This document shows, piece after piece, positions 54,901 to 57,900 of a stretch of DNA of 64,000 nucleotides. Where the stretch lies: NCBI RefSeq assembly GCF_013167455.1, contig NZ_CP038328.1. The stretch is one strand, 5' to 3'. Made by a program: the position numbers. The first letter of the stretch is position 1, and every line of letters starts with the position of its first letter. This DNA comes from Escherichia coli O157:H7 (GTDB taxonomy: Bacteria > Pseudomonadota > Gammaproteobacteria > Enterobacterales > Enterobacteriaceae).

Positions 54901-57900
54901 GGAGCAGCCCTGACATCTGCACTGGCTCCGTTCCTGAAGGGGCGCGGAGGGGTTGACGTTGCGTCCCGTATATTACGCAATGCTCTGGTTCGCCAGCTGG
55001 CAATAACACCGCCTGAAATTGCCGGGGATTATCGTATGATTCTGGATGAATCCGGTGTGATGCCTGACCCCATGATGGTTCGTGATTGCCAGAGCTCTTA
55101 CACCCCTGCACAACAACTGCGCTTTCAGCAACGTCTGGATTACATTAACGGCATGCAGGAGTAATATTAATGGCACTTAAATGTCCCGAATGCGGTACGA
55201 CGGCACACGCCAGAACCTCCGCCTATGAAGCACCATCGGTTAAACGCTCATGGTATCAGTGCCAGAATCTTGAATGTTCCTACACATTTACCGCACTGGA
55301 AAGTGTGGATACGATAATCATGAAGCCCCGGCGCAATGAACAGGAATCAGAGAAAGCACAAATGCCGGAAAAACAACAGCAAACTCTCAATCGCTATGGC
55401 TCCGCGTCAAAGCTGTCAAGCCGTCAGCAAATTCCTGTCTGATTAGCAAAAAAAGCCCACGTAATCCCGGTCCAGTACTGGGATTTTTTACGCCTTTTCC
55501 CTGGCTGGCCTGAGAGCGCATGAGTGCATGTCTATAGCGCATGAAAACGCATGATTCTCATGCACCATTTTTGACGCGAAAGCCCTTGTGTGGTGGCTTC
55601 TGAGACGATTTGCGGAATGCATGAAAACCAGTCTGTTAAGCGAAGCGAGCAGGCGTGGGGGGCTGCGCGCGCTAAGGGGTTAGATTATAAAATATCAAAC
55701 GCCGGTGAGATCCATTATTGTGGAACCACCCGAAGGAAGTGTAGAGGCGAAAGTACCCAAAATAATTTTGCAAATTATTTAGAAATGAACTGAGCGCTCG
55801 AAACGAAATATAATTTCGAGCACCCCAATTAGCAGTTATATTTTTAATGTATTAAACAGGATAAAAACCAGAGCTTCCATTCTTATTTAAGTTATGGATT
55901 TTATTTGCATCATTAATTTTTATTTGGAACGTCGGACCTTTATTCTCAAGAATTACAATCTGGAAATTATAGTCCCTTTTGATTAATGCGTGATAAAATG
56001 AATCACTGAGACTGACGCTATTAACATCCGATAGAGAACCCCCTCTATCTTTATCAAAGTGCGTCACTAATGGACTATCAAGCACAACAAATCCAATGAA
56101 TGGATTCCCTTTTCTTGATAAAAATTCCGCAAAGCAAATGGTAAATATAGCATGCATTACTGCACGGGTACCTTTACCAAACATTCCTCGGCGTTTCCCA
56201 TTGATATTAAAGTCATATGTATCTTCGTCAAATCGCACTTTGTTATCTTTAGAATTTTCAAAATTTATATCATTCAAAAAGTCTTGCATCGCTATTTCTA
56301 TATCATACAAATCAGCTACTGTTAAGGAGTCAAAGTCCTCGGCGGAGTATTTAAGTTCGTCAACATCATCTTCTTTATCTTGTAATGAAGATAGAATGCT
56401 ATGTTTTGTGTGATCCATTAAAAGATTGTCTTTATATTCATAAAGTGATTCAAGAGATGAATGTATTGTTTTATATTTTTATCTTCTAACGTCTTAAAAT
56501 CACTTTTTTCTGATTGATAAATTTCATTAACATCATTTTTTCTTAACATAATTAATTCATGTTCGCGAACATTAGATCCGATTGATTCAATTAATCCTTT
56601 CAGCTGGCTTTTGATTTTCAATTTTTCTGCATTACACGACAAAAAACAATCATCATATGATATTTCATTTTCTTTTTTTTGCGGTGTATTACAGAACTCA
56701 CAATAAATATCTGCAAAATTATTTAAATAGAAATTCGCCTGTGATACAACATCTATTCTTTGTAGATCTATAAAGTATTGGTCTTTAAGAAGACTAAATC
56801 TTTCAATGAGTAATGATAAGTATTTTTCCCTGTCACTGATTGAATATAATTCATCACTTAACTCTTTTAATAATTGCTTCTTATCATCAAGTGCATCAAC
56901 AATACCTTTCAATATATCTTTCGATGATTCAATATCTTGCTCTACTTTCTCAAGTTCTCTTGAAACAATGACTTGATCATATTCAGGATAAATTAATTGC
57001 GCTTTCAATTCCTCATAAATATTTGCAATTTGATTTTTTTAAAAATATCTTGCTTTTTTATTTGGTTTTTCTGCTAAGGAGTTAGTATCATCTCTCTGAG
57101 TTAAAAGGAATTTAAATTCAGACTTTCTTTTTGTCTCCTCGCTAGGAATATCAGAAAGAATTAACGACTTCTCAGTTAACACTCTTAATTCATCAATACA
57201 AAAAAATTCAAAAACATTATTAAGATTAAATTTATGAAGAGTATTACTTAAGTTTGTTCTTACTTTAGCCTCTTTGAAATTCAACCTACCATAAAAGTAT
57301 GATGAAAAACTCTTTTTAGACGAAGCACTTTTGGAAAAAACCATCAACAGATTAGCTTCACTAACATTTTCAATGCTCGAATCATATAATCTGTAATGGG
57401 CGCTATCCTGAAGAGACCTCTCAATTGTCATTACCCTACCTTGAAAATTAAATTCCAGATAGGCTAAATCATAACCTTGAGCATGATCGATATCTTTATT
57501 TTTTAGTTTTTCACTCCCTAATAAATATCGAATCAAATAATATATGTATGTTTTTCCAGAGTCAGAACCACCATATAAAATAGTCAATTTAGAACCAAAT
57601 TCAATTATAGCATCTAATTTATTGAATCCGGTTACCTTTATTTTTCTGAACGTAAAAAAATTGTCATTCATAATTAAATTCCATATCATATTTGCCAATT
57701 TTATTTTTTATAATTGATTGCAACTGCTCATCAGGAATATCACTATATAACTTAACCACCAAATTTATATTATGCTCCATCTGCGCAACATATTCATTAT
57801 GTAGAGAATTTGTAAATGCATATGTTTTTTCAGAAGCTTTATATACAAAACCACGATGTGTATAAATTTTTGAGGCTAGTTCATAGCCTTGCAACAAAGC

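Follow-up and report, generated by a model that had tools for sequence, protein, structure and literature searches.

Three consecutive open reading frames (ORFs), here called D, E and F, lie on the minus strand between positions 55852 and 57698 of a 64,000-nucleotide stretch of Escherichia coli O157:H7 DNA (RefSeq assembly GCF_013167455.1, contig NZ_CP038328.1; hereafter the window), and translation of this region raises the question of whether they encode the parts of a genuinely divided ABC ATPase, owe their borders to sequencing errors, or are the remains of one gene. The original prediction, made from the window sequence alone, favoured a single protein interrupted by one in-frame TAA and one frameshift. 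We conclude that D, E and F are almost certainly the pieces of a single dead gene, lmuB, within an inactivated and neutrally drifting short (type II) Lamassu operon, a defence system of the ABC-three-component (ABC-3C) type.

A scan against PADLOC-DB placed the three ORFs on one and the same LmuB profile, PDLC03863 (610 positions), with D matching positions 3–199 (E-value of 8e-50), E positions 231–412 (2e-21) and F positions 428–608 (5e-37); the occupation of consecutive profile segments is far beyond chance. The upstream ORF at 57664–58137 matched the LmuC profile (E=2.5e-36), and the LmuA profile PDLC03852 was divided between two further ORFs, positions 141–333 falling on ORF 58122–58739 and positions 44–140 on ORF 58712–59017. 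By these matches the region is a Lamassu operon with the gene order lmuA-lmuC-lmuB, of which both lmuB and lmuA lie in fragments; neighbouring genes overlap at their start and stop codons. LmuB, LmuA, LmuC and the Walker B motif are all those of an ABC-3C/Lamassu system. What the window does not have is a set of intact translatable genes, lmuB carrying one nonsense codon and one frameshift and lmuA two frameshifts. When all pieces and their intact orthologues were scanned against NCBIfam no family was matched, and single-sequence phmmer searches against the PDB returned nothing useful for the repaired LmuB, LmuA or LmuC; the solved Lamassu proteins were reached only by a family profile (LmuB) and by a fold search (LmuA).

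Searches with the repaired LmuB sequence identified uninterrupted orthologues of 606 amino acids (aa) in Proteus mirabilis (87% identical at the amino acid level) and Pantoea alhagi (75%), and a wider family of proteins of 594–621 aa reaching down to ∼22% identity. The expectation of one SMC-like ABC ATPase of about 610 aa is borne out by these continuous proteins, which also carry Ser at the Walker B position. The orthologous loci (Proteus L005, Pantoea L007) encode an LmuA of 335 aa with a CTD6 domain, an LmuC of 152 aa with an MC2 domain and the LmuB of 606 aa. In both Proteus mirabilis (L004 and L005) and Pantoea alhagi (L006 and L007) the gene order and the overlaps are the same as in the window, which is 89% and 79% identical to the respective operons at the nucleotide level; unlike the window operon, however, these are uninterrupted. 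Over the 3.3 kb of the window operon, identity to the Proteus operon is 89.3%, and gaps occur at the lesion sites only.

Comparison with the orthologues accounts for each border between the three ORFs. D and E share a frame, as had been predicted, and are separated by the TAA codon at 57039–57041 and ten sense codons (KNQIANIYEE), which align with the orthologues. D truly starts not from the TTG at 57698 but from an ATG (57671; MNDNFF...) that overlaps the lmuC stop codon. E indeed lacks an ATG or GTG start, having only a TTG and no ATG or GTG before residue 144, and its final 17 codons are out-of-frame junk 3' of the frameshift. E and F overlap by TAATG. Ahead of the ATG of F (56418), which in the orthologues codes for a Met inside the protein, the F frame stays open for a further 20 codons (KYKTIHSSLESLYEYKDNLL). 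The A5 run held responsible for the frameshift exists, although the original prediction had placed it a few bases away: it occupies 56476–56480, and the run at 56469–56472 is an A4. Addition of one A to the A5 run joins E to F in a 606-aa product containing LEDKKYKTIHSSLESLYEY, to be compared with LEGKKYKKIHLLLESLYEY in the Proteus orthologue. The repaired run yields KKYK as in the orthologues, and both repairs restore the orthologous sequence. The lesions created the ORF boundaries by accident, the TTG 'start' of E and the TAATG overlap as well as the ATG of F.

The polarity of the lesions was set with the Proteus and Pantoea orthologues as outgroups. Among 5,426 complete E. coli genomes, 308 have a match to the window at an identity of at least 99%; most of the listed ones bear an O157:H7 or O55:H7 label, and for many records no serotype is given. 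The matches occupy 310 places. One of these is on a plasmid-classed record, perhaps through wrong assignment of the replicon or as an additional copy, and one matching genome holds two places. A query carrying the ancestral A6 matched 307 E. coli records, all with one gap and none exactly (0/307), and the A5 lesion is common to every O55:H7 and O157:H7 copy. The distribution of the nonsense codon, determined with a 97-base query with complex flank, is narrower: TAA is found in 298 records and TTA in 10 (seven O55:H7 strains, FDAARGOS_946, O157 strain 493/89 and LSU61). A T stands at the position equivalent to 57040 in O55:H7, 493/89, LSU61, Proteus and Pantoea, and Leu211, the residue lost, is nearly invariant in the LmuB family. 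Strains 493/89 and LSU61 are presumably early-branching O157 lineages; the former shows the intermediate state of decay, its lmuB annotation consisting of just two ORFs (417 and 188 aa).

Further lesions are private to sublineages. The A-run at 56504–56509 is an A5 in O55:H7 (RM12579, FDAARGOS_946) and an A7 in LSU61, and either change leads to an early stop. The extra base in LSU61 was considered as compensation for the base missing at 56476–56480 and rejected, as an AAG-TGA arises at once and the annotated ORF stops there. FDAARGOS_946 carries a nonsense codon in lmuC. In M1300706002 (L008, 2062–3275) an insertion sequence (IS) of the IS3 family, IS1203, has inserted in fragment D of lmuB, and the O157:H7 records 6535NalR and 6535WT show the same features in the match table. 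A deletion in a Logan assembly (L009) joins lmuC to fragment E, and the operon is partly deleted in strains 4276 and F3113. The selective regime has shifted as well. The ratio of non-synonymous to synonymous substitution rates (dN/dS) is 0.07–0.12 for all three genes when the repaired E. coli sequences are compared with those of Proteus or Pantoea, and seven of the eight substitutions between O55:H7 and O157:H7 are non-synonymous.

The locus therefore combines the marks of a pseudogene: uninterrupted close orthologues, derived lesions, relaxed selection afterwards and an independent build-up of lesions. Taken together, the orthologues, the lesions and the shift in selection indicate a gene cluster that functioned until recently, had been inactivated by the time O55:H7 and O157:H7 split, and then went on decaying neutrally. 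Two 1-base A-run deletions, at 58715–58721 in lmuA and at 56476–56480 in lmuB, knocked out the operon before that split. Typical O157:H7 later gained the TTA to TAA change at 57040, the subclade of the window probably the lmuA frameshift at 59085, and other sublineages their own indels, the lmuC nonsense codon, the IS1203 insertion and the deletions.

The two other genes of the operon differ in their state. By tblastn, the window LmuC is 91% identical to that of Proteus over its full length, and LmuC orthologues carry the Pfam domain MC2 (PF20288); lmuA, in contrast, is spread over three frames, and its deletion at 58715–58721 parts the nuclease domain from CTD6. The latter domain is recognized by Pfam in the LmuA orthologue (E=4e-29) and is present in 38 of 38 homologues, whereas Mrr_cat is matched in four of the 38 at E≤0.001 and in 12 at E≤0.1. 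Residues D43, D47, Q66, K68, E82 and K85 of the N-terminal domain are invariant. With an AlphaFold model of LmuA (pLDDT 93) as the query, the best PDB matches in Foldseek were to solved LmuA, 9nxx (probability 1.0, E=2e-4) and 9ny1, followed by MspJI, Cap4 and FokI. Neither EDL933, strain 9000 and O55:H7 nor the orthologues have the second lmuA deletion, at 59085. With an 81-base query for this allele, five of 301 records fell in the band of at least 99% identity, and the four listed (ECP19-598, 17B6-2, G5295 and FRIK1989) were each 100% identical; the deletion is either a marker of the window's subclade or a recurrent miscall. In Pantoea alhagi CP019706 (L006, 6945–7550) lmuA is called as 201 aa, as against 335 aa in the near-identical L007, and may be damaged or mis-called there.

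Besides the lesions, the original prediction had drawn attention to a Ser in place of the catalytic Glu of Walker B (VVLDSP), from which altered hydrolysis was suspected. The residue is real: D532-S533-P534 is invariant in 13 of 13 aligned family members, down to 22% identity. A profile of the LmuB family matches solved LmuB 9hqu (E=2.5e-13) and 9ny5/9uxl, and then SMC and Rad50 heads; in this search S533 aligns with the Gln of ILDQP/IYDQP in the solved LmuB structures. The published Walker B consensus of short Lamassu systems is hhhhD[Q/S/T/E], and deviation of this kind has been linked to slow hydrolysis (Haudiquet et al., PMC12663957); SalEnt LmuACB, with a natural E→Q replacement, turns over about 1 ATP per minute (bioRxiv 10.1101/2025.03.14.643221). 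Since the Ser is invariant in the family and falls within the published consensus, it is characteristic of the family and does not result from the decay.

Features of the lmuB locus and its surroundings in the window. Lengths of ORFs D–F are counted from the start codon named.
Feature	Coordinates	Strand	Remarks
ORF D	57039-57698	minus	219 aa from TTG
ORF E	56418-57008	minus	196 aa from TTG
ORF F	55852-56418	minus	188 aa from ATG
lmuB pseudogene, whole	55852..57671	minus	Rad50/SMC-like ABC ATPase of short Lamassu; 606 aa once repaired
Fragment D	57039..57671	minus	N-terminal head lobe with Walker A; terminates at TAA
Fragment E	56418..57038	minus	Coiled-coil arm with CxxC zinc hook; no real start codon
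Fragment F, own frame	55852..56475	minus	C-terminal head lobe with signature-like FGKGTRA and Walker B
Nonsense TAA from TTA (Leu211), T→A at 57040	57039..57041	minus	Specific to typical O157:H7
A5 run, 1-base deletion from ancestral A6	56476..56480	minus	Frameshifts lmuB; from DNA alignment with intact Proteus operon
A6 run, mutational hot spot	56504..56509	minus	A6 in window, typical O157:H7 and 493/89
Walker A GGSDSGKT (G34-x4-G39-K40-T41)	57549-57572	minus	Conserved in family alignment
CxxC zinc hook CEFC (C324, C327)	56691-56702	minus	In coiled coil; single hook
Signature-like FGKGTRA (family GKGxR)	56161-56181	minus	Fragment F
Walker B GFVVLDSP (family hhhLDSP)	56071-56094	minus	Ser codon 56074-56076
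lmuC (ABC-3C middle component 2)	57664..58122	minus	152 aa; intact in window
lmuA pseudogene	58122..59127	minus	Mrr-like PD-(D/E)xK nuclease domain and CTD6 docking domain; three frames
lmuA nuclease motifs GAGDKGRD; YQCK	58988-59011; 58925-58936	minus	Motif reading
lmuA A7 run, 1-base deletion relative to orthologues (AAATAAAA / AAAGAAAA)	58715..58721	minus	Common to all O55:H7/O157:H7 genomes
Second lmuA frameshift, one A lost (GAACAATGG → GAACATGG), codon 15	59085..59086	minus	Window's subclade only
P4-type tyrosine integrase	59131..60363	minus	RefSeq; one boundary of hotspot
sid-like	53864-54616	plus	RefSeq; other boundary (P4-like core, 53864..55442)
psu	54613-55164	plus	RefSeq; P4-like core
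ogr/delta	55170-55442	plus	RefSeq; P4-like core

The genes on either side place the operon in a recognizable setting. Beyond the sid-like gene lie Icd-like, DUF5375 and primase-helicase genes (RefSeq annotation, EDL933), and the GC content is 28–33% in the cargo versus about 50% in the satellite core. An int-psu defence hotspot of P4-like satellites has been defined (Rousset et al. 2022, PMC9122126), and the Lamassu operon is low-GC cargo of this hotspot in a P4-like satellite of the O55:H7/O157:H7 lineage. Both Pantoea loci (L006, L007) have identical synteny, with Pfam matches to Psu, Ogr_Delta, Phage_AlpA and Phage_ASH, a P4 alpha-type primase and an integrase orthologue carrying Arm-DNA-bind_3, Phage_int_M and Phage_integrase; the Pantoea operon thus sits in the same P4-like int-psu hotspot, just after proBA, whereas the Proteus operon is in another island that adjoins smpB and has a different integrase. 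An Rfam search of the window retrieved a C4 antisense RNA (52365–52452, minus strand; 84 bits) beside isrK (52521–52598, minus strand; 72 bits), and the pair looks like the immunity or regulatory RNA region of the satellite. ARAGORN detected no tRNA beside the satellite integrase between 52000 and 64000. An IS-type 'integrase core domain' fragment (ORF 60868–61233, within 60364–61233), annotated as a pseudogene in EDL933, is found there instead, and therefore the int-proximal attachment junction seems to be disrupted. As in the published hotspot (PMC9122126), the cargo of the window lies between int and psu/delta, is low in GC and is flanked by sid, psu, delta, an alpha primase and a C4-type RNA; unlike the usual cargo, it is dead, in a satellite whose checked core genes stay open.

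One experiment on O157:H7 has a bearing on this setting. A two-gene cytidine-deaminase system from strain FRIK944, located in another P4-like hotspot, was inactive as construct pFR98 against the phage panel of its authors (PMC9122126, supplementary file 3). We considered this construct as a test of the Lamassu locus and rejected it, since it represents a different locus, on another P4-like element, and is no evidence on the present one; the RefSeq protein accessions of the Lamassu locus were not found in the supplements of that study. Because FRIK944 carries this second hotspot cargo, the O157:H7 lineage appears to have at least two P4-like elements.

A fixed dead system is unusual in such a place because, according to a 2026 survey, defence pseudogenes are rare (<1%) in P4 hotspots, the replacement of a system there usually preceding its decay (bioRxiv 10.64898/2026.02.27.708500). 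It might thus be asked whether inactivation was adaptive, Lamassu having been lost as costly, autoimmune or an obstacle to plasmids and lambdoid prophages gained later by O55:H7/O157:H7. This explanation agrees with ours on the identity of the locus and differs only on the cause of its death. The rarity of defence pseudogenes speaks for it, as do the age of both founding lesions, which predate the O55/O157 split, and the published observations that Lamassu is toxic when over-expressed and defends against lambda-vir (PMC12663957). However, 1-base slips in A-runs are the spontaneous mutations to be expected in a gene of 28–33% GC, a clonal lineage easily fixes neutral lesions, and the ancestral activity of the operon is itself a prediction. 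Adaptive loss is therefore regarded as unlikely. A related scenario, in which a pre-split loss of Lamassu, permissive or selected, did away with abortive infection directed at plasmids and lambda-like phages and so opened the lineage to lambdoid (Stx) prophages and pO157, with the dead cargo becoming fixed in an otherwise open satellite, seems to us quite improbable; if permissive loss were true, the dead cargo would be an exception to the 'swap before decay' rule of P4 hotspots.

Several points weigh against the reading of D, E and F as one dead gene in a dead operon. RefSeq treats the pieces as ordinary coding sequences (CDSs) and not as pseudogenes: PGAP presents the lmuA and lmuB fragments as five CDSs with WP_ accessions and no pseudogene flag (EDL933 4623–7899; all O157:H7 RefSeq records), fragment D being a 210-aa 'AAA family ATPase' and the labels given to the fragments being 'AAA family ATPase', 'hypothetical protein' and 'ABC-three component system protein'. 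The lmuC gene is intact. The N- and C-terminal head lobes of Rad50 assemble in vitro as separate chains (1f2t and 1f2u, whose N-lobe chains were matched by the profile), and the lmuB fragments may, as far as their sequences go, retain some residual activity. Finally, demonstrations of the Lamassu mechanism come only from Cap4-type systems, in which Walker B is D-Q, and not from the D-S/Mrr-like clade.

Some of these points would suit a functional split ATPase, in which D, E and F assemble non-covalently and the TAATG overlap permits re-initiation at F, or a recoded one, made at a low regulated level by readthrough of TAA and a -1 slip on the A-run. The initiation signals do not agree with the former: E lacks both ATG and GTG, and just 0–1 nt separates its GAGGAA from the TTG; the ATG of F is that of an internal Met and has no Shine-Dalgarno sequence. 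As for the latter, two independent events would be needed for a full-length product. Programmed -1 frameshifting and transcriptional slippage at the A-run were rejected, as T-AAA-AAT is no X-XXY-YYZ slippery heptamer and, going by established recoding rules, A5 is too short for efficient transcriptional slippage. Both versions are further contradicted by the single-ORF state of the close orthologues, the different disabling lesions elsewhere in sister lineages and the predominance of non-synonymous changes since the split. Moreover, with lmuA also frameshifted, a sensor restored in either way would have no tethered effector. We consider a split or recoded LmuB very unlikely.

Decay and sequencing error were the two outcomes foreseen by the original prediction, and the second, under which the A5 run, the TAA or both are artefacts and the living strain carries an unbroken gene, is hardly credible: homopolymer miscalls are common and the 59085 deletion in lmuA is confined to five records, but the presence of A5 in 307 of 307 records and of TAA in 298, including the independent assemblies of EDL933, Xuzhou21 and FRIK strains, together with alleles that track lineage (O55:H7, 493/89 and LSU61 keep TTA), excludes such an error for both lmuB lesions.

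The pseudogene reading of lmuB has its main value in the correction of annotation, as the fragments are now listed as normal CDSs. It may also matter for surveys of immunity. A 2026 preprint reports that PADLOC and DefenseFinder predict a common Lamassu-family system in three of four O157:H7 panel strains, and its passage on that system makes no mention of breakage (10.64898/2026.07.23.740414). The locus of the window is a likely candidate for the system counted; if so, two of its three genes are broken, and it should not be taken as active immunity when phage susceptibility is predicted or phage therapy against O157:H7 is considered. The ordered lesions (shared frameshifts, then TTA to TAA, then sublineage indels and IS) constitute a small set of markers for the O55:H7 to O157:H7 lineage, and the locus is a concrete case of a defence pseudogene kept in a P4 hotspot. 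The biology is otherwise ordinary. The family is known, namely short (type II) Lamassu with a D-S Walker B, a zinc hook in LmuB and a nuclease effector of Mrr-like type; the locus is a member of it that has turned into pseudogenes, its site, a P4-like satellite hotspot, is of a familiar sort, and PADLOC already has profiles for the clade. The Proteus and Pantoea operons provide intact, testable representatives of the D-S Walker B/Mrr-like effector clade.

How the operon would have worked when intact can be proposed from published Lamassu structures. In the systems studied, LmuB/LmuC sequesters LmuA and then releases it, and ATP hydrolysis is slow (PMC12663957; bioRxiv 10.1101/2025.03.14.643221); we infer by analogy that the D-S/Mrr-like clade employs the same mechanism. 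An LmuB dimer with LmuC would hold an LmuA monomer through the C-terminal domain of the latter. Upon sensing of DNA ends by LmuB/LmuC, LmuA would be released and oligomerise, and its freed N-terminal nuclease would destroy DNA and thereby abort the infection. LmuB would be a deliberately slow ATPase, the Walker B Glu being replaced by Ser in this case. Such a mechanism cannot operate in the window, because the sensor is in three pieces and the effector is cut off from its docking domain.

The closest known systems are the solved Lamassu complexes, DdmABC of V. cholerae (LmuABC; 9ny5, 9nxx, 9uxh) and LmuACB (9hqu, 9hqx), which consist of the same three genes as the window operon. They share with it an LmuB that combines Walker A and a coiled coil with a Walker B deviating by the lack of the catalytic Glu, LmuC as the middle component, and an LmuA composed of an N-terminal nuclease and a C-terminal docking domain. 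Sequence identity to the solved proteins is nevertheless very low; the Walker B of the window is D-S rather than D-Q, its effector resembles Mrr_cat rather than Cap4, and a CxxC zinc hook, absent from Vc-Cap4 (PMC12663957), occurs once in its LmuB. It also differs from known Lamassu systems in that two of its three genes are pseudogenes. The zinc-hook ABC ATPases Rad50 and SbcC have in common with the LmuB of the window a head of N- and C-terminal lobes, an antiparallel coiled coil and a CxxC hook. LmuB is much shorter than these proteins, has no Mre11/SbcD nuclease partner, carries Ser at the position of the catalytic Glu and serves defence rather than repair; Lamassu has been proposed to derive from SbcCD (PMC12663957).

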